From: Candidatus Tremblayella phenacoccinincola
Lineage (GTDB): Bacteria > Pseudomonadota > Gammaproteobacteria > Burkholderiales > Burkholderiaceae
Reading direction: 5' to 3'
Length of the DNA stretch: 32,000 nt
Assembly: GCF_009805595.3 (NCBI RefSeq)
Contig: NZ_VMQO03000002.1
Coordinates: forward strand, 30,001-62,000
Position 1 is the stretch's first letter. Each line of letters opens with the position of its first letter. The notes beneath the pieces are model-generated. The model worked only from the letters and a program-made list of their open reading frames with translations. It had not been told where the DNA came from and did no database searches. The translations under genes and the position numbers were made by a program. Positions 1-10,291 of this stretch are shown here, piece after piece.

Positions 1-801
1 CTAATTAAAGGCTTATTTCTTGCTGGTCAAGTTAATGGTAGCACGGGTTACGAAGAAGCAGCAGGTCAAGGAATTATAGCAGGAATAAATGCTGCCAGAA
101 TGTGCTTTAATAAAGAAGCTTGGACACCTCGACGAGATCAAGCTTATTTAGGAGTATTATTAGATGACTTATGCACACAGGGAGTTGAAGAACCATATAG
201 AATATTTACTTCAAGGGCAGAATATAGACTAATATTACGAGAAGATAATGCAGACCTCAGGCTAACTGAAATAGGTCGGAAGCTAGGATTAATTAGTGAG
301 TCACATTGGAAAAGCTTTTGCGCAAAGGTTAATAATATAGAAGCTATACACCAAAAGCTAAAAGAAGCTTTCATCTATCCAAATACAAAAGCTAGTAACT
401 ATATAAATAAGCTTTTAGTAAACCCATTATTAAAAGAAACAAACTGTAAATGCTTACTAAAAAGACCAGCTATAAACTATAATATATTATTAACTTCAAA
501 AGGGTTTCCATATTTTGATGCAAAAGCTTTTAAAGAAGCTGAAATACAAATCAAATACTCTGGCTATATTGTACGTCAATATGAAGATGTTAAACGTAAC
601 ATAAGTAATGAACTAATAAAAGTACCTTATAATATTGAATATAATAATATCTCTGGTTTATCTAATGAAGTTACTGAAAAGCTAAAAAAGCATCACCCAT
701 CAACTATTGGCCAAGCTTCAAGAATAGCTGGCATTACACCTGTTGCCATTTCTATGCTTTTAATTTGGTTAAGGAAGAGCAATATGTTAAAACTACACTA
801 A
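1..801 (+). CDS. mnmG: tRNA uridine 5-carboxymethylaminomethyl modification enzyme MnmG (GidA), C-terminal 266 codons; 5' end outside window
   Basis: Frame 1 is open from base 1 (LIKGLFLAGQVNGSTGYEEAAGQG...) and runs into ORF 100..801. Motifs QAYLGVLLDDLCTQG, EPYRIFTSRAEYRLILREDNADLRLTEIGR, SGLSNEV and IGQASRIAGITP match MnmG; the DDLCT wording is as I recall for E. coli. Confidence 0.95.
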   Translation, partial: LIKGLFLAGQVNGSTGYEEAAGQGIIAGINAARMCFNKEAWTPRRDQAYLGVLLDDLCTQGVEEPYRIFTSRAEYRLILREDNADLRLTEIGRKLGLISESHWKSFCAKVNNIEAIHQKLKEAFIYPNTKASNYINKLLVNPLLKETNCKCLLKRPAINYNILLTSKGFPYFDAKAFKEAEIQIKYSGYIVRQYEDVKRNISNELIKVPYNIEYNNISGLSNEVTEKLKKHHPSTIGQASRIAGITPVAISMLLIWLRKSNMLKLH

Positions 802-851
802 TAATTAGAATTCATGAAGCATGTTGTTAAAGGCTGTCTAAGGTTCTTTTA

Positions 852-860
852 TGTTATAAT
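852..860 (+). promoter_or_regulatory. candidate extended -10 element (TGTTATAAT) 33 nt upstream of rlmE
   Basis: tgttataat read directly at 852-860, with no convincing -35. TATAAT-like strings are common by chance in DNA this AT-rich. Confidence 0.2.
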
Positions 861-892
861 GCTGCTTTTATAAGACCTATATAATAATACAT

Positions 893-1498
893 ATGAAACA
901 CCTAATTAAGACAAATAAAAGCATTGATTACTACACATTAAAAACAAATAAATTGGGTCTTCGTTCACGTGCTTGGTTTAAAATAGATGAAATACAAAAA
1001 GCTGTTAACTTATTAAAGCCAGGAATGTCAGTAGTTGAGCTTGGTTCAAACCCGGGTGGGTGGTCAGAATACGTCTTAGATAAAATAGGAAAACAAGGTT
1101 CAATCATAGCCTGTGATATTCTACCTATGAATAAACTAAAAGGAACATATTTTATACAAGGTAACTGCTTTGCTAAAAATACTCTAGAAATGCTATACCT
1201 AAAAACAAAAGGTTCCAAAGTTAATGTTATATTATCAGATATGGCTCCAGCTATTACGGGCATCTCTTCTATTGATATTCCTAACTCTATAGAACTTATA
1301 AAGCTATCTCTAAAAATATGTTTAGCTATTCTAAAACCAGGAGGTAGTCTTCTAGTAAAAGCTTTTCAAGGAGAAAGGTTTGCTAGTCTATATAATAAGC
1401 TAAGAACTATATTTAATAAGGTTAAGCTATGTAAACCAAAGGCTTCTCATTATTATTCAAGAGAGGTTTATGTTGTAGCTAAAGGACTAGCTGTATAG
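893..1498 (+). CDS. rlmE: 23S rRNA 2'-O-ribose U2552 methyltransferase RlmE (FtsJ)
   Basis: 201-aa ORF. GLRSRAWFKIDEIQ, KPGMSVVELGSNPGGWSEY, IIACDILPM, ILSDMAPAITG, LKPGGSLLVKAFQGE and SREVYVVAKG align along the whole length with E. coli RlmE as I recall it. Confidence 0.93.
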   Translation: MKHLIKTNKSIDYYTLKTNKLGLRSRAWFKIDEIQKAVNLLKPGMSVVELGSNPGGWSEYVLDKIGKQGSIIACDILPMNKLKGTYFIQGNCFAKNTLEMLYLKTKGSKVNVILSDMAPAITGISSIDIPNSIELIKLSLKICLAILKPGGSLLVKAFQGERFASLYNKLRTIFNKVKLCKPKASHYYSREVYVVAKGLAV

Positions 1499-1573
1499 GT
1501 TTATAGATACATTCTTTATTGTACTAAGGAACTGTTGTTAGAGACTCTAGAGGGAGAAGTACTTCTAGCATAT

Positions 1574-1656
1574 ACCGAGGTGGCGGAATAGGTAGTCGCG
1601 TTACTTTGAGGTGGTAATGCTTTATAAGCATACGGGTTCAAGCCCCGTCCTCGGTA
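1574..1656 (+). tRNA. leuU: tRNA-Leu (anticodon GAG), class II with long variable arm, no encoded CCA
   Basis: Hand fold: acceptor accgagg/cctcggt, D arm gcg..cgc, anticodon stem ttact/ggtaa with loop ttGAGgt, variable arm tgctttataagcat, T arm acggg-ttcaagc-cccgt, discriminator A. Very close to my memory of E. coli leuU. Followed by tta, not cca. Confidence 0.9.
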
Positions 1657-1684
1657 TTATATAATAAACATAATACACATCTAA

Positions 1685-1759
1685 AGCGGAGTGGAGCAGT
1701 TTTGGTAGCTCATCGGGCTCATAACCCGAAGGTCGTTGGTTCAACTCCAACCTCCGCAA
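1685..1759 (+). tRNA. metY: initiator tRNA-fMet (anticodon CAU), no encoded CCA
   Basis: agcggagtggagcag...tcgggctCATaacccgaaggtcgttggttcaactccaacctccgcaa. It has the three consecutive G:C pairs in the anticodon stem and an unpaired 1:72 position (A1 x A72), both typical of bacterial initiators. Near-identical core to E. coli tRNA-fMet. The metY symbol is only by position upstream of pnp. Confidence 0.9.
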
Positions 1760-1794
1760 CTACAGCTAACTTCCCTTCCTAGCTAGGAGCTCTT

Positions 1795-2003
1795 GGTTTA
1801 TTAGGAGAAGGTAGGAGAGGAGAGAGTTAACAGCTATAGCTATTAAAGAGCTTCTCTCTCCCCTCTCTTATATATACTTCTACTTCTAACTAACCTTCTC
1901 CTCTTCTCTCCTTTCCCTTTCCTTATTCTTATCCACCTTTCTCCTCTCCTTTCTCCCCCCAGGCTTCCCCCTCAACACATCCAAACATTCCTCTCCTTTC
2001 ATA
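1795..2003. repeat. C/T-rich low-complexity element, copy A
   Basis: A short purine arm (1803-1826, aggagaaggtaggagaggagagag) is followed by a ~150-nt polypyrimidine tract on the + strand (1851-2000) containing only about two G. Modules: tatatatac 1869-1877, ctaactaac 1886-1894, ccccccag 1955-1962, caacacatcc 1973-1982. Its composition contrasts sharply with the ~25% GC flanks. Confidence 0.8.
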
Positions 2004-2289
2004 CCGCTAACTATAGTTCCAATAGCTACAGCAGCTATAATAGATTCTAGAGACAGTATGTATGGTAGTTTAACACATATTAGGTTTATAGTTCTAGAAG
2101 GCTAGGTATTTAGAACGCAATAAGCCTTTTGTCTTTATTACTGAACATATAGAAAGTAACCAACCTTTTGTTTCTATTGGATCTGTATCTTTTGAGGCTA
2201 TATAGCTATGGTTTAAGGACATATTAGCTTTAGGTTTATTTAGCATATAATATAATAACTATTAACTAAACTGCACTAAGGATATTATA

Positions 2290-4404
2290 TTGTTAAACCC
2301 AACAAAACATAGCTTTAAATATGGTAAACATACTGTAACTATCGAAACCGGTGTAATAGCTAGACAGGCAGATACTTCAGCATTAGTTAATATGAACGAA
2401 ACAATCGTTTTAGTAACTGCTGTATATTCTAAACAAATAAAGCAACCTCAGGCTCTCTTTCCTTTAACTGTGAACTATCAAGAGCGAACATATGCAGCTG
2501 GTCGTATTCCAAGTGGTTTTTATAGAAGAGAAGGACGTCCTAGTGAATCTGAAATACTAATATCTCGCTTAATAGATAGACCTATTCGTCCTTTATTTCC
2601 AGATAGCTTCCTAAATGAAGTTCAAATATTTGCTACAGTATTATCTTTAAACCCTCAAGTTACTACTGATATAGTATCTTTAATAGGTGTGTCAGTAGTT
2701 CTTAGCTTATCAGAACTTCCATTTAATGGACCATTTGGAGTTGCAAGAGTTTGCTATGTTAATGACAAATATCTATTAAGTTCTGATATTACTGGCCAAA
2801 CAGCAAGCAGCTTAGACTTAATAGTTGTTGGTAGTTCTAATTCAATACTTATGGTCGAATCTCAAACAAAGCTTTTAAATGAACAACAAGTACTAGAGGC
2901 TATTCTATTTGGTTACAAAGAACAGCAAAAAGTAGTTAATAATATTAACGAACTAACTAAAAGACCATGTAATAAAAGCTGTATTCATAAAAACTATAGT
3001 TCTAATATAGAATACATATTCCTAAAAGCTAAAGTAACAAAACTAGCAGAACCTCGCATATTTGAAGCTTATCAAAATACAAACAAGAAGGAACGCTTTT
3101 CTTCAATAGAACTAATTAAGCTTGATATCTTAAATAGTATAACTGACTCTAGAATACCTAGTATAATTCTTAGCTTAGAAAGGAATATTATGAGTAGCTA
3201 TCTCTTAAAAAAAGGAATACGTATTGACGGTCGTAATAAAAAAGCTATTCGTAATTTAAACATTCGTATTGGCTTTTTACCTAGGACGCATGGATCTGCT
3301 TTATTTACTAGAGGAGAGACTCAAGCTTTAGTTACCGTTACTTTAGGGAATCAACGAAATGCTCAAAATGTAGACGAACTAAAAGGCGAACGCATAGATC
3401 GATTTCTTTTTCATTATAACTTTCCTCCGTTTTGTGTTGGAGAAGTTGGCATAATTGGTAGTCCAAAACGACGTGAGGTTGGTCATGGTTGGTTGGCAAA
3501 AAGGAGCTTACTACCTATTATACCTGAAGACAACATATTTCCATATACAGTTAGAATTGTATCAGAAATAACTGAGTCTAATGGGTCTTCTTCTATGGCT
3601 TCAGTATGCGGAGCATCCTTAGCTTTAATGGACGCAGGGGTTCCTATATGTTTTCCAATAGCTGGTATTTCTATAGGTCTAATAAAAGAAACCAATAACT
3701 ATTTATTACTCTCCGATATTATAGGTGATGAAGACCATTTAGGAGATATGGACTTAAAAGCTTCAGGTACAAAGGCTGGTATGACTGCTATTCAAATGGA
3801 TATAAAAATACAAGAGCCTGTATATAAAACCATTATAGACCTAGCCTTAAAACAAGCTAGATCTTCTATATATTTTATATTAGACATAATGAACAAATCT
3901 ATTAGCTCTTCTAGAAAAACTATAGGTAAATATGCTCCAAAGTTATACACAATCAATATAAGTCCTGATAAAATTAAAAGTGTTGTTGGAAAAGGAGGTT
4001 CAATAATAAAGTCTTTAATAGAAGAAACTAATACTAATATAGATATTTCAGATGCTGGCATGATTACTATATACTCTTCTAATGATAATATGGCGAACAT
4101 TGCCTTAAATAAAATAAAAGAAATTACTTCTGATATCAAAATAGGAAACACCTACTCAAGTAAAGTTATTCGTATTGTCGAGTTCGGAGTTTATGTTATA
4201 TATTGTGGTTATAAAGAAGGTTTAGTTCATATTTCACATATAGCTAATAGATATATATCTAAGGTTTCTGATCATTTAACCATAGGCCAAGAAGTACTAG
4301 TTAAAGTTCTAGACATAGATCGTTTTGGCAAAGTAAAGCTAAGCATAAAAGAAGCAAGTAACCCTGCAATAAGTAACATTTCTAATAAGCTTAAGCCTAA
4401 ATGA
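2290..4404 (+). CDS. pnp: polyribonucleotide nucleotidyltransferase (PNPase)
   Basis: 704-aa ORF starting at TTG. The N-terminus MLNPTKHSFKYGKHTVTIETGVIARQA...FPLTVNYQERTYAAGRIPSGFYRREGRPSE is close to E. coli PNPase. Two RNase PH-like halves, then KH (VVGKGGSIIKSLIEETN) and S1 (GLVHISHIANRYISKVSDHL..GQEVLVKVLDIDRFGKVKLS) domains. Stop is TGA. Confidence 0.97.
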   Translation: MLNPTKHSFKYGKHTVTIETGVIARQADTSALVNMNETIVLVTAVYSKQIKQPQALFPLTVNYQERTYAAGRIPSGFYRREGRPSESEILISRLIDRPIRPLFPDSFLNEVQIFATVLSLNPQVTTDIVSLIGVSVVLSLSELPFNGPFGVARVCYVNDKYLLSSDITGQTASSLDLIVVGSSNSILMVESQTKLLNEQQVLEAILFGYKEQQKVVNNINELTKRPCNKSCIHKNYSSNIEYIFLKAKVTKLAEPRIFEAYQNTNKKERFSSIELIKLDILNSITDSRIPSIILSLERNIMSSYLLKKGIRIDGRNKKAIRNLNIRIGFLPRTHGSALFTRGETQALVTVTLGNQRNAQNVDELKGERIDRFLFHYNFPPFCVGEVGIIGSPKRREVGHGWLAKRSLLPIIPEDNIFPYTVRIVSEITESNGSSSMASVCGASLALMDAGVPICFPIAGISIGLIKETNNYLLLSDIIGDEDHLGDMDLKASGTKAGMTAIQMDIKIQEPVYKTIIDLALKQARSSIYFILDIMNKSISSSRKTIGKYAPKLYTINISPDKIKSVVGKGGSIIKSLIEETNTNIDISDAGMITIYSSNDNMANIALNKIKEITSDIKIGNTYSSKVIRIVEFGVYVIYCGYKEGLVHISHIANRYISKVSDHLTIGQEVLVKVLDIDRFGKVKLSIKEASNPAISNISNKLKPK

Positions 4405-4432
4405 CGTTACAATAGGGGTTTCCTCAGAGTCT

Positions 4433-4515
4433 ACCGAAGTGGCGAAATGGGTAAACGCAGTTAACTCAAAGCTAACCACCTTGTAGGTTTATCGGTTCAA
4501 ATCCGATCTTCGGTA
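4433..4515 (+). tRNA. leuX: tRNA-Leu (anticodon CAA), class II, no encoded CCA
   Basis: accgaagtggcgaaatgggtaaacgcagttaaCTCAAAGctaac... Acceptor accgaag/cttcggt, anticodon loop ctCAAag, long variable arm, T arm atcgg-ttcaaat-ccgat, discriminator A. The 5' half is close to my memory of E. coli leuX. One A-C mismatch closes the anticodon stem. Confidence 0.85.
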
Positions 4516-4602
4516 GTTCTTAACATACACCCCCTATTGAATATACAATTGCTGTTAAATATAAAGACATTATAGAGAATACAAAAGCGAATAAACTCTC
4601 CT

Positions 4603-5184
4603 ATGAAATATAACATACTTCCTAAAAGCTACAATAAAGTTCATATCATTGGTGGAAAGCTTAAAAAAGCTAAACTAAATATAAGCAATGACTACAACTT
4701 AAGACCTACTTCTAATAGAGTTAGAAAAGCTATTTTTAGTTGGTTAGATCCCTTAGCAAAAGGTTATTATTGTTTAGACTGCTTTGCTGGAAGTGGTGTT
4801 TTAGGAATAGAAGCTATCTCAAGATATTCGTTAAATGTTACATTCTTGGAAATAAACAATAACTTCTTCAATAGTTTGATAAAAAACATAAATAGGCTAA
4901 AGCTAAATAATATAAGCTTAGTTAATATAAATGCTTTAGAATGGTTAAATAATATTAACAAACCTAAACCTTTTGATCTAGTTTTCATTGATCCTCCATT
5001 TTTCAGAGGAATGATAGCTAAAACCATAAACCTACTAGAAAGCCTTAATTACTTATCTCATAAGTCTATAATATACATAGAGTCTGAAATAGGTCAATCA
5101 AACTATAAAGTTCCCAAAAGCTGGTTAATATACAAAGCTAAAGACTCAAATAATCTATCATATAAACTGTATATAAGAAGCTAA
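4603..5184 (+). CDS. rsmD: 16S rRNA (guanine966-N2)-methyltransferase RsmD
   Basis: 193-aa ORF. IIGGKLKKAKL, LRPTSNRVRKAIFSWL, CLDCFAGSGVLGIEAISRY, FDLVFIDPPF and IIYIESE are collinear with E. coli RsmD (CLDCFAGSGALGLEALSRY, VFVDPPF, LIYVESE). Confidence 0.9.
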   Translation: MKYNILPKSYNKVHIIGGKLKKAKLNISNDYNLRPTSNRVRKAIFSWLDPLAKGYYCLDCFAGSGVLGIEAISRYSLNVTFLEINNNFFNSLIKNINRLKLNNISLVNINALEWLNNINKPKPFDLVFIDPPFFRGMIAKTINLLESLNYLSHKSIIYIESEIGQSNYKVPKSWLIYKAKDSNNLSYKLYIRS

Positions 5185-5211
5185 GGCTCCCGCATTCTGC
5201 TAGATTAGTGA

Positions 5212-5724
5212 CTACATTAAACAGCTAGTCTTATTCAATATTATATTATAGGGTTTTTTATTAACGTTAATTATCTTATTAAGCACCTTAAGATACAGCT
5301 TATTTCTTTCTTTTATTACAGAATCTAATATCTTATATAGGCTTATCCTAATAACTAATGTTAAAGGTCTTTGTTTAGCTACTACCCTTTTAGATTGTTC
5401 TTTAATACCTATCTTAACCCATAAGACAATATTAGAATCTAATAGGCTCTTACATATATCTATATGGACAACAGATCCACCTCCAGTAGCTAATATAATG
5501 TTAGTTTTTATTAGCATAGTTCCAATTAGGCTTTCTTCTTTTATTCTAAATGATAGTTCTCCCTCTAAATAATAAGTTAAGTCAATAGATGCTTTATATT
5601 TAGCTTCTACTTTTATATCTGAATCAATATAAAACAGGTTTAGATGTCTAGCTAAGAAGTTACCTATCGTAGTTTTTCCAGAACCCATTAAACCTACTAA
5701 AGCTATGCTTATTATTTCTTTCAT
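5212..5724 (-). CDS. aroK: shikimate kinase
   Basis: 170-aa ORF. It has the Walker A motif LVGLMGSGKTTIG, DSD, FR..E and ILATGGGSV, with the length of AroK. Confidence 0.88.
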   Translation of the reverse strand: MKEIISIALVGLMGSGKTTIGNFLARHLNLFYIDSDIKVEAKYKASIDLTYYLEGELSFRIKEESLIGTMLIKTNIILATGGGSVVHIDICKSLLDSNIVLWVKIGIKEQSKRVVAKQRPLTLVIRISLYKILDSVIKERNKLYLKVLNKIINVNKKPYNIILNKTSCLM

Positions 5725-5837
5725 TTAGCTATATAGTGTTTATCTAATAAAGAAGTCTAAAAGAGCTAAAGAAGCTAGTATTTAGGAACATTCTAGGTTT
5801 AACTACTAGCTACTCTACTTTTAAATGCTTTAGGTTT

Positions 5838-5858
5838 AGGTGAAGAGGAGAGGGAGAG
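5838..5858. repeat. short inverted copy of the C/T-rich element core (purine-rich on + strand)
   Basis: aggtgaagaggagagggagag followed by ttaggg. It parallels aggtaggagaggagagag-ttaac at 1809-1831. The reverse complement reads cctaactctccctctcctcttc, i.e. a CTAACT core plus a CT run as in copies A-C. The TAA of the core is the tsaB stop codon. Confidence 0.6.
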
Positions 5859-6587
5859 TTAGGGCCCTTTGTTCTTTGAGGTTAAAATATAACTAATACA
5901 ATATTCCTTCCTATAGATATCAAATACGTATTTTGGAGAAACTTGCTCAGATGATAGCTTTTCACCTTTGATAGCTTTATGAATACCTATTGGTAACATA
6001 CTTTTAGCTGTTAATAATATGGGCTTTTTTATAGTTATAGTTCTTAGTTCAAGGTTATCATCCAAATAAAACAATAAGTCAATATTACTAACTATTACAT
6101 ATTCTTTATATTGTTCTAGTTCTATAGATAGTTTCTTAAAGATGAGTCTAAGTCTATTTGGGTTAGTTCTTCTAAACCAGGTTATTAAACCAATATTGGG
6201 TTTATGGTAGTTTGTTAGATATGCTTCTTCATTAGCTTTTATAACTAATAGTATTTTGGGTTTAACAGAGAACCAGGGTTGAACAACAGCTTCTAATGTA
6301 GATATGTTAACTAAGGGTAGGTTTGTATAGATAGATAAGCCTTGAGATAAAGATATTCCTATCCGTATGCCAGTGTAGCTACCATAATTATTACTAAAAG
6401 AAAGGTATTTAATATCAGTTAATGAAAGGCCTACTTCTAACAAAGCGCTATCTATAATAGGTATAGCTAAATGAGGTTGTTTATATGGGGCTTTTGATAG
6501 GTATTCACTAATTATAACATTATTAATGGATAATGCGACAGAACAGAATATATTAGTTGTGTTAATAGCTAATAGACGTATATGCAA
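5859..6587 (-). CDS. tsaB: tRNA N6-threonylcarbamoyladenosine synthesis protein TsaB (YeaZ)
   Basis: 242-aa ORF. IRLLAINTT...CSVAL and GSYTGIRIGISLSQGLSIYTNLPLVNISTLEAV align with E. coli TsaB ([46 protein letters not shown]). The ORF-track start is a TTG, so the true start is uncertain. Confidence 0.82.
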   Translation of the reverse strand: MHIRLLAINTTNIFCSVALSINNVIISEYLSKAPYKQPHLAIPIIDSALLEVGLSLTDIKYLSFSNNYGSYTGIRIGISLSQGLSIYTNLPLVNISTLEAVVQPWFSVKPKILLVIKANEEAYLTNYHKPNIGLITWFRRTNPNRLRLIFKKLSIELEQYKEYVIVSNIDLLFYLDDNLELRTITIKKPILLTAKSMLPIGIHKAIKGEKLSSEQVSPKYVFDIYRKEYCISYILTSKNKGP

Positions 6588-6675
6588 GGGAGAAGAACCG
6601 TAAATACAGTTAAGTTAGTAGTTGGTTCTTGGTTCTGCTAATACTTTAGTATATGGTTTAGGTTAGACATAAGCT

Positions 6676-6912
6676 TTCCCCCCAGTTAAGACCAACACAT
6701 CATAACACAGATTCAAAGAGCTATCCTCTCCTTCCCCCATATATACCTACCGCATCTGTCTCATACTCTGGTTTTAATCCTTCAACAGCTTATTGATTAA
6801 CCGGACAACCAGTAGGTCTTTCCCCCTTTCTAGTTCATATTATTAACACTTCCTCCTTCTCCTTAAACACTAACTAACCCCCTCCCCCCCCCTTCCTTCC
6901 TTTCCTTTAGTC
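6676..6912. repeat. C/T-rich low-complexity element, copy B, filling the spacer at the compositional switch and running into the 3' end of rpsU
   Basis: Modules read directly: ccccccag 6678-6685, caacacatc 6693-6701, atatatac 6739-6746, ctaactaac 6870-6878, C9 homopolymer 6884-6892. The densest polypyrimidine part is 6851-6910. Confidence 0.8.
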
Positions 6913-7097
6913 TCAACCACCCTCCTGAAATACTTCTTTGCTGATGATGCTTTCTTTCTTTTCCGTTCAGAGGTTGGCTTTTCATAAAATAACCTAGAAC
7001 GCACTTCACTTAGTAAACCGCTACGCTCAACCATCCTCTTGAACCGACGTATGGCTATTTCAAATGGTTCGGCTTCTTTAATAAAAACAATACACAT
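6870..7097 (-). CDS. rpsU: 30S ribosomal protein S21 with an atypical Gly/Glu-rich C-terminal tail
   Basis: 75-aa [48 protein letters not shown] matches S21. AGGAG lies 5 nt upstream of the ATG (ctcct at 7103-7107). The last ~12 codons ([12 protein letters not shown]) are encoded by element copy B. Confidence 0.9.
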
Positions 7098-7212
7098 AAA
7101 TTCTCCTATACTATACGGGGGTTCATGTTGATATCTTTATTTAAATACAGCTATTGGTAACAGGTAATTCTTGGTAAGATGAAGCTGTTGAACCGACAAA
7201 TAAGACAAGAGA

Positions 7213-7370
7213 ACCTCTCCTTCCTTCTCTTTAAGTTCTAACTAAGAACTCCCCCTCTCAACACTCTCTCCTCTCTCCCTTCCTTTTTCCTATCTCTATA
7301 TATACCTCTCAAACGTACCTCCACATCATTCCTCCTCCTCCTCCCCCCCCCTACCCCCAAACGCTAGAAG
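7213..7370. repeat. C/T-rich low-complexity element, copy C (rpsU-aroB spacer)
   Basis: Modules: ctaactaag 7238-7246, ccccctctcaacac 7251-7264, tatatatac 7297-7305, cacatcattcctcc about 7322-7334, (CCT)4 7331-7342, C9 homopolymer 7343-7351. Confidence 0.8.
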
Positions 7371-7435
7371 ACCCATAATATCTTATCCTCACTACCATTC
7401 AAGCCTTCAAGTAACAACCTAAACCTAGGAACAAC

Positions 7436-8530
7436 TTAGGAACAACAAACCCCAACACTTCGACTTGTCAATAAAAGCTTTTCCAATGAAGAAGCGCTCA
7501 TTGTTAATATTAATGCTTGTCCTAAGTCTTTAACTAAAACAATGTTGCAGGAACGCACCAAAGAGTTAGTATTCTTCTTATCAACACTAATAGTTTTTAG
7601 GTAAGTCTCTACTTTCAACCCACTAGGCACAGATATAGGCAAACGACAGATGGATAACAAACGTATCAACCTACGCTGAACACTTAAATCAATTAACCCT
7701 AATCTAAAAGAGATGTCAGAAGCAATCACCATTCCACAGCTAACTGCCTCTCCATGTAACCACTTTTGATACGAAAGGTAAGATTCTATTGCATGTCCAA
7801 AAGTATGTCCAAAGTTTAAAACAGAACGCACACCAGCTTCTCGAGAATCTGTTGCTGTTACGTTTAACTTAAGCAAGCAAGCATGTTTAATCATGCTTAT
7901 TACAACACTCAGTTTACGCTTCAATATCTTAAACATCATTTTCTCAAGCCATTTAAAAAAGTCCCCATCAAGCGCAACACTTATCTTAATAATCTCTGAC
8001 AAGCCTGAGTGCCATTCTCGTTGAGATAAAGAGCTTAGGTTCGAAATATCTAATATTACTCTGTCTGGCAAATGTATTGTCCCAACAAGGTTCTTTCCAA
8101 GTGCGGTGTTCAGTCCATTCTTTCCTCCAAAAGCTGAGTCTACTTGAGCTAAAAGAGTTGTTGGGATGTGTATTAATTTAACACTTCGCATATAGCAGGA
8201 TGCAATAAACCCCGAAATGTCACCAACCACTCCACCTCCAAAAGAAGCAACCTTCGAGTCTCTGCTTAGTTCCTCATACAAAAGAACTTTGAGTATACCG
8301 ATGAAAAACCTTAACCGCTTATAACGTTCTCCAATTCCAATAATGACCTTTGTTACTTTAAGACTATTCTTATTTCTTTTGAAGCTTCGTAATCGCTTGA
8401 GCCTACATAAACTAGCAACTGAACTATTAGTGATTAGCACCAAGCTCTTGATGTTTTCATACGCTATAAAATCCCAATGCTTCTGAGACTGCATGCCTAC
8501 ATATCGAATGTTTCTTTTAGAAAAGCTCAT
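7436..8530 (-). CDS. aroB: 3-dehydroquinate synthase
   Basis: 364-aa ORF. GERYKRL, FGGGVVGDISGFIASCYMRSVKLIHIPTTLLAQVDSAFGGKNGLN, LGKNLVGTIHLP, SGLSEIIK, LNFGHTFGHAIE and WLHGEAVSCGMV are the AroB motifs in the right order. Confidence 0.9.
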   Translation of the reverse strand: MSFSKRNIRYVGMQSQKHWDFIAYENIKSLVLITNSSVASLCRLKRLRSFKRNKNSLKVTKVIIGIGERYKRLRFFIGILKVLLYEELSRDSKVASFGGGVVGDISGFIASCYMRSVKLIHIPTTLLAQVDSAFGGKNGLNTALGKNLVGTIHLPDRVILDISNLSSLSQREWHSGLSEIIKISVALDGDFFKWLEKMMFKILKRKLSVVISMIKHACLLKLNVTATDSREAGVRSVLNFGHTFGHAIESYLSYQKWLHGEAVSCGMVIASDISFRLGLIDLSVQRRLIRLLSICRLPISVPSGLKVETYLKTISVDKKNTNSLVRSCNIVLVKDLGQALILTMSASSLEKLLLTSRSVGVCCS

Positions 8531-8572
8531 AACAGGCTTTAGGTTGGTTTGTTATTGAAAGAAGAATGTTAA

Positions 8573-8587
8573 GTGAGAACTTCTCAC
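8573..8587 (-). terminator. weak hairpin downstream of rplQ / upstream of aroB (possible terminator or attenuator)
   Basis: gtgagaacttctcac is a 6-bp stem with a 3-nt loop, followed on the - strand by a moderately U-rich stretch (uuaacauucuucuuuc). It sits in the only sizeable spacer (8531-8672) to the right of 7436. The stem is short, so this is weak. Confidence 0.2.
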
Positions 8588-8672
8588 TAAATAATATGTA
8601 CACAAGAATGGGTTTCGGAATGTTGAGTTATTTAATGAGGTTTGGTGTGGTGTACTGGCATCTAGGCAGTTA

Positions 8673-9023
8673 TCATATTAGCTCCACCATACTAACAACT
8701 GCTTTATCACCTTTGCGTATGTGTGATTTAATAATGTGGCAGTAACCTCCCTTTGTTTGAAGATACCTGGGTCCTAGAATGTTAAAGACTTTCCTAACGC
8801 ATCTTTCATTATTTAATTGTTCCATCACTGACCTAATGTTAGCTACTGTTTTCTTTTTGCCTTGAGTAATTATTGGTTCAATGATTTTCCTAAGGCTTTT
8901 TGCTTTTACAAAACAAGTGCATATACGTTCCCTTGTTATAAGCGAATGTGCTAAGCTTTTAAACATCGATTGCCTATGGCTGCTCTTTCTATTCAGTTTT
9001 TTTAAGGATAGGTTGTGTTTCAT
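8673..9023 (-). CDS. rplQ: 50S ribosomal protein L17
   Basis: 116-aa ORF. LNRKSSHRQSMF, IIEPIIT, LGPRY and GGYCHIIK match L17. It is the last gene of an alpha-operon arrangement. Stop is TGA. Confidence 0.93.
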   Translation of the reverse strand: MKHNLSLKKLNRKSSHRQSMFKSLAHSLITRERICTCFVKAKSLRKIIEPIITQGKKKTVANIRSVMEQLNNERCVRKVFNILGPRYLQTKGGYCHIIKSHIRKGDKAVVSMVELI

Positions 9024-9024
9024 C

Positions 9025-9696
9025 TTAGACAGAAAGTAATGAGAACTGAGACTTTAGGATATGTATCGACTGTCTTAGTGCTTCTATCGGAGTAACTGAA
9101 CCATTTGTTTCAATGTTTAGAATTAGTCTCTCAGAGTTATAGTTAATGAGGCTGACAGAATAGCTAACGTTTTTAACTGGAGAATAAAAAGCATCCATAA
9201 TTAGTTTACCATTATTCCAACATAACCCATTGCTTTTAGGAACATAGCCCCAGCCTTTCTGTATTTTAAGATATGCACTCAACCTTCCTGAGTCCAAATG
9301 GCATATTATATGGTTGGGGTTAACTATCTGACATCTGTAGTCCGTTTGAATATCTCTAGCATATACTGTTCCTGGATTTGTTTTACGTAGAGTGAGAGTT
9401 AGTGAAGCAATATGTACGTCCAACTTAAAAACAACATTCCTTATATTTAATGCTAACTGCAAAGAATCCTCTGCTATACCGGTAACTGAAGAGAATTCAT
9501 TTGAAGAACCAACTATCTCAACTTCTGTAACAGCAGTCCCACATATTGAAGACAGCAAAGTACGTCTGAATGCGCAACCTAGAGTATCACCATAGCCTCT
9601 ATCAAGAGCTTCTATTGAGAACTGAGACACATTACAGCCTCGTGCAACAATGGATCTTATTTGAGGTATCAGCATTCTAGCACCCATATAGTTCAA
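9025..9696 (-). CDS. rpoA: DNA-directed RNA polymerase subunit alpha, N-terminal domain only (223 aa)
   Basis: ALDRGYGDTLGCAFRRTLLSS..GTAVTEVEI, HIICHL, KGWGYVP, MDAFYSPVKNVSY and LILNIETNGSVTPIEALRQSIHIL are collinear with E. coli alpha residues 1 to about 235. The ORF stops there (TAA 9025-9027), one base before the rplQ start. It overlaps rpsD by 20 bp if the first ATG is used. Confidence 0.92.
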   Translation of the reverse strand: MNYMGARMLIPQIRSIVARGCNVSQFSIEALDRGYGDTLGCAFRRTLLSSICGTAVTEVEIVGSSNEFSSVTGIAEDSLQLALNIRNVVFKLDVHIASLTLTLRKTNPGTVYARDIQTDYRCQIVNPNHIICHLDSGRLSAYLKIQKGWGYVPKSNGLCWNNGKLIMDAFYSPVKNVSYSVSLINYNSERLILNIETNGSVTPIEALRQSIHILKSQFSLLSV

Positions 9697-10291
9697 TGAT
9701 TAGTCTTTCGTTTAGCTCTATTGGAATCTCTTTGCGTGTTGGCTTTTGTTTAAATGTTCCTTCCATTTTAAAATGATCTACATTCAACCAACATGGAACT
9801 TTCTGATGTATCCTGATGGCATTTGTTATTCTGAGTTGGGTTTTTGACTTATCGTGGATTTTAATTGAATCTGCTGGCTTAACTAAAAATGAAGGAATGT
9901 TCACTACTCTGTTGTTTACCAAGATGGACCTATGTGCTATTAGTTGACGTGCTTCAGCTCTTGTTACACTAAAACCCATTCTGTACACAATATTGTCTAA
10001 CCTAGCTTCTAAAGTCTGTAGTAGAAGGGTTCCTATTTCAGAATTAGCTTTATAAACACTTCGTAGATAAATTAGGAACTGCCTTTCTGTAATTCCATAG
10101 ATTCGTTTAGCTTTTTGCTTTTCACGGAGTTGAATTCCATAGTTGGATACCTTCAGTACATGCTTACTCTGTTGTCCTGGTTTAGTTCTAGACTTACACT
10201 TCTCCTCAAACGAACGAATACCACTTTTTAGGAAGAGGTCACAGCCTTCTCTTCTGGAAAGCTTTTGTTTAGGTCCTATATATTTAGACAT
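9677..10291 (-). CDS. rpsD: 30S ribosomal protein S4
   Basis: 204 aa. YIGPKQKLSRREGCDLFLKSG, QLREKQKAKRIYG, LEARLDNIVYRMGF..TRAEARQLIAH, KMEGTF and IIELY match S4 throughout. Confidence 0.96.
   Translation of the reverse strand: MSKYIGPKQKLSRREGCDLFLKSGIRSFEEKCKSRTKPGQQSKHVLKVSNYGIQLREKQKAKRIYGITERQFLIYLRSVYKANSEIGTLLLQTLEARLDNIVYRMGFSVTRAEARQLIAHRSILVNNRVVNIPSFLVKPADSIKIHDKSKTQLRITNAIRIHQKVPCWLNVDHFKMEGTFKQKPTRKEIPIELNERLIIELYGC

Follow-up and report, generated by a model that had tools for sequence, protein, structure and literature searches.

Rickettsia palindromic elements are short repeats that occur as in-frame insertions in genes, and the mitochondrial conserved sequence block II (CSBII) consists of a G-run, an A and a second G-run. 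In Portiera aleyrodidarum of the whitefly Bemisia tabaci, short repeats proliferated in the enlarged spacers of one lineage (Sloan & Moran 2013, PMC3673631). The growth of these repeats coincided with the loss of replication and repair genes, structural variants were demonstrated, and the repeats have been discussed as a substrate for rearrangement (PMC3673631). Here we describe three C/T-rich tracts, A, B and C, in a 32-kb stretch of contig NZ_VMQO03000002.1 (the window), whose source genome is almost certainly the beta/gamma chimeric Candidatus Tremblaya phenacola strain PSOL. The reading that we cautiously favour, rating it slightly better than even, is that the tracts are young, lineage-specific low-complexity DNA, which grew in a few long spacers of PSOL after its split from strain PPER and did not create the gene junctions at which it lies.

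The window was scanned with a 60-nt sliding window, and a region was retained when it contained at least 80% pyrimidine and was C-rich. Only 1848-2002, 6840-6943 and 7235-7358 were retained from the 32 kb. The pyrimidine-rich strand is the + strand in all of them, and the G content of that strand is 1–4%. Three C-rich, G-poor tracts on the + strand had been proposed in a preliminary description of this DNA. All of them are present and are the sole such windows, but tract B as delimited there (6676-6912) is a heterogeneous composite with 18 G. Tract A (1848..2002, + strand) is a 155-nt polypyrimidine stretch with 66 C, 62 T, 23 A and 4 G, located in the 529-bp spacer between tRNA-Met and pnp. 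Within it are TATATATAC (1869), CTAACTAAC (1886) and CCCCCCAG...CAACACATC (1955-1981), together with the pure pyrimidine runs 1894-1924 and 1936-1960. The scan region of tract B (6840-6943, + strand) has 44 C and 4 G. Tract C (7213..7370, + strand) is a polypyrimidine stretch with 71 C and 6 G in the 338-bp aroB-rpsU spacer; it carries CTAACTAAG (7238), CCCCCTCTCAACAC (7251), TATATATAC (7297), (TCC)5 (7330-7344) and a C9 run. Further pure pyrimidine runs bring the range to 19–31 nt (1851-1869, 6878-6908, 7264-7291 and 7329-7352, in addition to the two of tract A named above).

The tracts have a GC content of 44–46% and a C content of 42–45%. GC at four-fold sites, which reflects the mutational equilibrium, is 8–12% in the gamma-derived genes (mnmG, rlmE, pnp, rsmD, aroK) versus 19–33% in the beta-derived genes (rpsU onward). 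As the GC of the tracts is far above these values, the tracts must be young, continually regenerated or maintained, and old neutral DNA is impossible. The jump in four-fold GC between 1-6600 and 6870-32000 also indicates that the fused gamma and beta parts still lack a common base composition. Other origins of the tracts were considered and rejected. Replication- or transcription-linked base skew does not suffice as the sole cause, since the four-fold skews are modest and inconsistent among genes, and since the polarity is reversed in two of the short copies. An inheritance of beta-type spacer DNA from Tremblaya was dismissed because the spacers of strain PAVE are not C/T-rich and tract A lies inside a gamma block. 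Pseudogene remnants were sought by tblastn of PAVE HisG and AroK against 5100-9100, which gave nothing better than E = 2.

The core of tract B (6846..6920, + strand) is a 72–75-nt PSOL-specific insertion within the 3′ end of rpsU, and reads as 16 pyrimidines, AAACA, CTAACTAAC, 31 pyrimidines including C9, and AGTCTCAACCAC. The gene ends with ...CATATC AAG AAG TCC TAA TAA TATG in PPER and with ...TATTTC AGG AGG (insert) AGG AAG TGT TAA TAA TATG in PSOL. The minus strand shows a 6-nt near-repeat, AGGAGG / AGGAAG, on the two sides of the insert; in PPER, AAGAAG stands there only once. The reading frame is kept, and the insert itself supplies a stop codon (TAG within GTTAGTTAG). It encodes the last 15 residues of the PSOL ribosomal protein S21, whereas S21 of PPER is 15 residues shorter at the C-terminus. 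The ancestral double stop TAATAA, common to PPER, persists as a relic downstream of the new stop (6840..6845, minus strand). Because the ancestral last codons and TAATAA are kept downstream of the insert, the event is polarised as a gain in the PSOL lineage. Judged from the alignment of the two strains, the core of tract B is a clean in-frame insertion in rpsU, and we regard this as demonstrated.

The remainder of tract B in its preliminary delimitation is of a different nature. The left end is conserved, ordinary spacer rather than low-complexity filler, and holds the element CTGTGTTATGATGTGTTGGTCTTAACTGGGG (within 6676..6712, aligned at 6680-6711, minus strand). This element is identical to PPER in 31 of 32 nt despite the scrambled spacer around it. 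With an extended -10-like TGTTATGAT lying about 100 nt upstream of tsaB, it is probably a conserved tsaB/aroK promoter. Next to it is a pyrimidine patch found only in PSOL (6724..6748, + strand), which reads TCCTCTCCTTCCCCC and then ATATATACCT and belongs to a segment whose PPER counterpart is about 45 nt shorter. The PSOL-only segment around 6724-6790 contributes TCCTCTCCTTCCCCCATATATACCT.

PPER is the nearest genome in the species-representative collection, with 81%, 79% and 77% identity for AroB, PNP and RlmE, respectively. The PPER loci compared were contig 19 (L001; ribosomal-protein genes, rplQ, aroB, rpsU), contig 22 (L005; pnp, rsmD, aroK, tsaB) and contig 2 (L006; tilS, trpA, trpB, trpCF, trpD, fmt, def, mnmG, rlmE, tRNA-Leu, tRNA-Met). 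None of the 60-nt windows in these 27.5 kb reached 80% pyrimidine or purine, the maximum being 0.78. A 78-nt scan of the PPER loci plus 21 kb of PAVE found no window near the C/G asymmetry of the tracts. Of the aroB-rpsU spacer, the 80 nt nearest to rpsU, on its upstream side, are conserved in PPER; the distal part, i.e. tract C, is unalignable and has no PPER counterpart, and is about 135 nt longer in PSOL. At the locus of tract A, contig 2 of PPER stops 230 bp past tRNA-Met and contig 22 begins 210 bp before pnp. Neither of these flanking pieces (about 440 bp) is rich in C/T, and alignment is confined to the 240 nt adjoining pnp. The spacers of PPER do contain purine runs of about 20 nt with G7–G9, at 11532-11551 of L001 and 1472-1491 of L006, the former being orthologous to PSOL 6817-6831. 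Such runs are improbable in a genome so rich in A+T, and might plausibly represent the seeds from which the PSOL tracts grew.

The preliminary description also held that the tracts sit where the genome architecture has changed and that they are candidates for having mediated the change. The first part is correct for all three tracts. At the site of tract A, the gene order has collapsed to 529 bp between tRNA-Met and pnp, compared with the Escherichia coli-type order metY-(nusA-infB-rbfA-truB-rpsO)-pnp. At the site of tract C, the beta-type aroB-hisG order of PAVE is broken. Tract B separates the gamma-derived aroK block from the beta-derived rpsU (origins from PMC11014885). However, this association is confounded with spacer length: spacers above 150 bp number just three in the window (529, 282 and 338 bp), and a tract is present in all of them. 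We believe that the tracts are at junction sites because non-coding DNA exists there.

The second part is not supported. PAVE, which is purely betaproteobacterial, has the order rpoA-rplQ-aroK-aroB-hisG-hisB onward, and the aroB-hisG order of this strain implies that the aroB-rpsU junction is a genuine rearrangement. In PPER, about 340 bp at the end of contig 22 recur at the start of contig 19, which gives the order tsaB-rpsU-aroB, as in PSOL. The aroB-rpsU junction is common to PSOL and PPER and must be older than their split. Since PPER has tsaB-rpsU-aroB without long tracts, the junctions predate the tracts. On this comparison of gene orders, the tracts are neither needed for the ancestral junctions nor the creators of them. 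In the PAVE order, a beta-type aroK is placed between rplQ and aroB (9377-10000 of the PAVE locus L008). It is gone in both PSOL and PPER; its site in the window (8531-8672) is now a 142-bp G/T-rich spacer with no detectable remnant, and the aroK that was kept is the gamma copy.

Triplex-forming DNA (H-DNA) had been invoked as a candidate mechanism: recombinogenic tracts would have produced the rearrangements and deletions seen here, or would still be producing them. The tracts contain homopurine/homopyrimidine stretches of the purity required for H-DNA (at least 90%), with pure pyrimidine runs of up to 31 nt, and they are found at three sites of altered architecture. Contigs 2, 19 and 22 of PPER end inside exactly the spacers orthologous to tracts A and B, and the authors of the PSOL genome blamed repeats for its contig breaks. 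In view of both facts, the tracts may be unstable at the present day. In Portiera, structural variants correlate with repeat-rich spacers (PMC3673631). Against these points stand the tract-free PPER junctions and the confounding by spacer length described above, and contigs 19 and 22 of PPER merely overlap in the same order as in PSOL. The mirror-like symmetry ascribed to the tracts could not be found either: a search for mirror repeats with arms of at least 10 nt and a spacer of at most 8 nt returned none in the tracts, nor any with arms of at least 11–13 nt when 1–2 mismatches were allowed. The whole window has two exact mirror repeats, neither of which is in a tract or purine/pyrimidine-pure. 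Without mirror symmetry, the defining feature of H-DNA is absent from the tracts. In addition, recA is not listed for PSOL (PMC11014885). We consider it quite unlikely that H-DNA shaped, or still shapes, these sites.

The modules quoted in the preliminary description are all in place, and the question is whether they mean more than a common composition. TATATATAC, CTAACTAA, CAACACATC and CCCCCCAG occur on the + strand only and are nearly restricted to the tracts. When both strands of the window were searched, two of the three occurrences of TATATATAC and three of the four of its 8-mer ATATATAC fell in tracts, as did three of the four of CTAACTAA; CAACACATC and CCCCCCAG are found in tracts A and B only. 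Shared 8-mers with at least three purines exceed the expectation from dinucleotide shuffles (P ≤ 0.007) in every pair of tracts (A-B, 6 vs 0.25; A-C, 5 vs 0.17; B-C, 5 vs 0.48), while the reversed-sequence control gives 0–2. Shared 7–9-mers are also above dinucleotide-preserving shuffles, yet most of them are low-complexity words of C and T only. The sharing of sequence beyond composition is real but modest, and local alignments between the tracts are not significant (Smith–Waterman, P 0.06–0.2). The rpsU insert aligns to A and C with P of 0.02–0.03, but the reversed control scores equally.

A second pattern is TAACTNNC followed by 12 pyrimidines, which is present at four independent sites, 1829(-), 1887(+), 5861(-) and 6871(+), where 0.56 are expected. 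This significance is inflated because the pattern was written after inspection of the data. No match was found in 9 other loci. The motif qualifies as a short core shared by several copies in both orientations, as in a miniature inverted-repeat transposable element (MITE). Two of its sites are the inverted purine cores noticed before, which are indeed there. The first (1804..1831, minus strand) reads TTAACTCTC and then a pyrimidine run, corresponding to a purine run on the + strand, and pairs with 1891-1916 as an imperfect 26-nt inverted repeat. The second (5838..5863, minus strand) reads CTAACTCTCCCTCTCCTCTTC and is 86% complementary to 1886-1906; the TAA in it is the stop codon of tsaB. Apart from their purine cores (1813-1826 and 5842-5858), no pure purine run in the 32 kb reaches 14 nt.

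These similarities could also be the signature of one older mobile element or tandem array, of which the tracts would be decayed copies and the islands TATATATAC, CTAACTAA and CTCAACAC the remains. The excess of purine-containing 8-mers, the occurrence of copies in both orientations and the 6-nt repeat that flanks the rpsU insertion are all consistent with this, and a pyrimidine run, CTAACTAA, a pyrimidine run and CTCAAC(C)AC are colinear in A, B and C. However, no copies can be aligned over their full length, and the true sequence scores no higher than its reversed control. Neither terminal inverted repeats nor common, defined ends were found in the tracts. The tandem unit of 130–170 bp suggested earlier is contradicted by Tandem Repeats Finder (TRF), which detected no unit longer than 11 nt. 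Its arrays are (TCC)5 (15 bp), an imperfect CTCTCTC array and three repeats of 7–11-nt period that are not of the C/T type. The circular permutation of the modules fared no better. Best-rotation chains score 43–56, compared with 39–47 for the reversed control and 34–37 for shuffles; with 3–4 modules, a matching circular order is near a coin flip and is not significant. The element is also absent from the sequence compared in PPER (27.5 kb) and PAVE (21 kb), and the far-from-equilibrium composition argues against old age. Descent from a single decayed element is unlikely.

Growth of the tracts in place, which we favour, would involve two processes. Replication slippage would lengthen pre-existing short purine/pyrimidine seeds, such as the Lys/Arg codons at the 3′ end of rpsU or purine runs of about 20 nt like those of PPER. 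The (TCC)5 and CTCTCTC microsatellites inside the tracts count in favour of slippage. Polymerase template-switching at microhomologies would make short templated insertions and copy patches of 20–75 nt between spacers. Such switching might account for the recurrence of TAACTNNC and its pyrimidine run in both orientations, as well as for the other shared 8–10-mers. For replication and repair, the KEGG table of PSOL lists only ligA, dnaB, dnaE, dnaN and dnaQ (PMC11014885). A text search of the supplements gave no mutS, mutL, recA, polA, dnaA, dnaG, primase or ssb (PMC11014885). Changes produced by slippage or insertion would persist because no mismatch repair, RecA or PolA is listed for the genome. 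As side effects, S21 has acquired a new 15-residue tail, and the minus-strand transcripts would carry leaders rich in G clusters.

These leaders raise the possibility that the tracts have a function. The strand transcribed with rpsU, tsaB and aroB is the minus strand, and it bears the G clusters G9AG5 (6878-6892) and G5TAG9 (7343-7358). The criterion applied for R-loop formation was a G-cluster initiation zone and, beyond it, no less than 100 nt of RNA with a G content of at least 40%. Downstream of the clusters, G amounts to 44% (7343-7358), 41% (1955-1971) and 34% (6878-6892); the last value is below the threshold, and the one at 1955-1971 presupposes transcription of tract A in that direction. 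Within the window, a G cluster plus a downstream zone of at least 40% G was found only in the tracts. The tracts might then be functional cis-elements in which the G-cluster RNA forms R-loops on the C-rich template and serves, in a CSBII-like way, as a factor-independent transcription stop or insulator or as a primer of DNA synthesis. Intrinsic terminators in 1400-8800 are limited to one weak match, and a scan for consensus promoters and terminators gave matches at or below the shuffle expectation. The published KEGG table has no rho, nusA, nusG, dnaA, dnaG or ssb (PMC11014885), and a GC content far above neutral could signal maintenance. Nevertheless, the tracts are missing from the orthologous sites of PPER, the polarity of tract A is wrong for the + strand genes on its flanks, and neither strand has a canonical G-quadruplex. 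We rate such R-loop elements as very unlikely. The more specific proposal, in which organelle-style R-loops would halt or insulate transcription between the fused beta and gamma blocks or would prime replication, with the 44–46% GC under selection, has a slimmer chance still.

The + strand RNA could instead be a Rho-utilisation (rut) site, in which case tract A would terminate transcription past the tRNA genes, and antisense read-through from rsmD would be stopped at tracts B and C. The tracts do have a rut-like composition (C-rich, G-poor and unstructured over about 80 nt): C/G on the + strand is 66/4, 44/4 and 71/6, corresponding to ratios of 11–18 over 100–155 nt, and little structure is predicted. 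RNA folding gave z = -1.4 for tract A (+) and +1.3 for the aroB-rpsU spacer (-), i.e. no signal. But rho, nusG and nusA are not listed in the KEGG table for either PSOL or PPER, while pnp, groEL and dnaK of the RNA-degradation pathway are (PMC11014885), and the tracts are absent in PPER. We give a Rho-dependent role almost no credence.

The possibility that the tracts are assembly or consensus artefacts was also weighed. PSOL was assembled with Unicycler from hybrid Illumina and PacBio reads, the tracts are low-complexity regions of this assembly, and the lengths of homopolymers such as C9 may be wrong. Exact-protein look-ups gave no independent copy of the sequence. On the other hand, the flanks are colinear with PPER on both sides, the rpsU insertion is in frame, an Illumina coverage of about 100x was reported, and specific motifs shared in two orientations are not expected of artefacts. 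An artefactual origin is highly improbable.

Several points weigh against the growth of young low-complexity DNA as a complete account. Slippage alone leaves a product with 42–45% C unexplained where neutral sites are 70–90% A+T. The common strand polarity of all three long tracts is likewise unexplained, as the flanking genes differ in orientation, and true tandem repeats are few. Gain in PSOL, as opposed to loss in PPER, is demonstrated for the rpsU insertion alone, tracts A and C being without an outgroup. The absence of tract A in PPER covers about 440 bp, with contigs that end inside the spacer. The evidence for the absence of repair and Rho genes is indirect, coming from the published KEGG table and supplements, and the evidence on the tracts is drawn from a 32-kb window of a 221-kb genome.

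The PSOL genome has 221,077 bp in 7 contigs with 34.8% GC and is a beta/gamma fusion. The PNP, RlmE and AroB proteins of the window show 100% identity to NCBI entries for 'Ca. Tremblaya phenacola' from a 63,038-bp contig. The gene order of the window agrees with the TPSOL peg numbering of Table S5 (pnp 121, aroK 123, rpsU 125, aroB 126, and rplQ 127 through to rpoB 160), in which aroK is assigned a gamma origin and rpsU and aroB a beta origin (PMC11014885). The + strand genes are mnmG (3′ end, to 801), rlmE (893-1498), tRNA-Leu(GAG) (1573-1657), tRNA-Met (1685-1760), pnp (2290-4404), tRNA-Leu(CAA) (4432-4516) and rsmD (4603-5184). On the minus strand are the gamma copy of aroK (5212-5724), tsaB (5859-6587), rpsU (6870-7097; S21, 75 residues) and aroB (7436-8530), followed from 8673 by rplQ, rpoA, the ribosomal-protein operons, tuf, fusA, rpsG, rpsL, rpoC and rpoB. 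The three tRNAs are the sole Rfam matches in the window. For rlmE, a third T. phenacola-like lineage was found in Logan SRR33549362 (L007, 2045 bp), whose RlmE is 74% identical; its contig ends 86 bp past rlmE, without the tRNA-Leu of PSOL and PPER. A (AACCTAGGAAC) x 2.3 tandem repeat at 7422-7446 spans the stop codon of aroB, and the 3′ end of aroB there is unlike that of PPER. The rpoA open reading frame (9025-9696, minus strand) encodes 223 residues. Its match to a 320-position profile covers positions 20-226, so the protein apparently lacks the alpha C-terminal domain. A 223-residue form is also found in PAVE, and the rpoA reading frame of the window overlaps rpsD by 20 nt.

If our reading is correct, the beta/gamma collage was not caused by the tracts, which are a by-product of it, and a repair-poor 221-kb symbiont genome is still able to gain DNA. 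One PSOL spacer would have gained at least 72 nt since the split of the sister strains, rewriting the end of a ribosomal protein gene. A strand-pure, C-rich gain against neutral sites with 70–90% A+T would point to a recent origin with fast turnover, to biased insertion or to selective maintenance.

The tracts resemble several known systems in part. They share with H-DNA motifs the pure homopyrimidine runs on one strand, up to 31 nt, but lack mirror symmetry at arms of at least 10 nt; the largest symmetric piece seen by eye is about 15 nt (TCCTTTCCCTTTCCT). Like Rickettsia palindromic elements, the rpsU insert lies in frame in a conserved gene of an intracellular bacterium and adds residues to its product. 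Unlike those elements, the tracts are non-palindromic and form no alignable family, with a single in-gene case, and that insert brings its own stop. The likeness to CSBII lies in G9AG5 and G5TAG9 on the transcribed RNA strand, followed by G-rich sequence, in a genome whose gene content is organelle-like. It is a likeness by sequence alone, and it differs in that the tracts are not conserved in PPER and one of them has a polarity opposite to its neighbouring genes. Portiera is also an obligate insect endosymbiont with unusually long spacers, in which repetitive DNA grew in one lineage, within spacers only, together with a loss of replication and repair genes (PMC3673631). The PSOL tracts likewise lie in spacers and are absent from PPER and PAVE, in a genome for which repair genes are not listed (PMC11014885). 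In Portiera the repeats are genuine microsatellites with a peak in 7-bp units, on a background of 26% GC (PMC3673631). In contrast, the PSOL tracts, known from assembled sequence alone, have minimal tandem structure and are strand-pure pyrimidine with 42–45% C. By the Portiera-type criterion (exact short tandem repeats of at least 18 bp), none is present in the tracts, which are cryptically simple and not microsatellite. Even with these differences, Portiera is, by analogy, the closest documented parallel to the tracts of PSOL.

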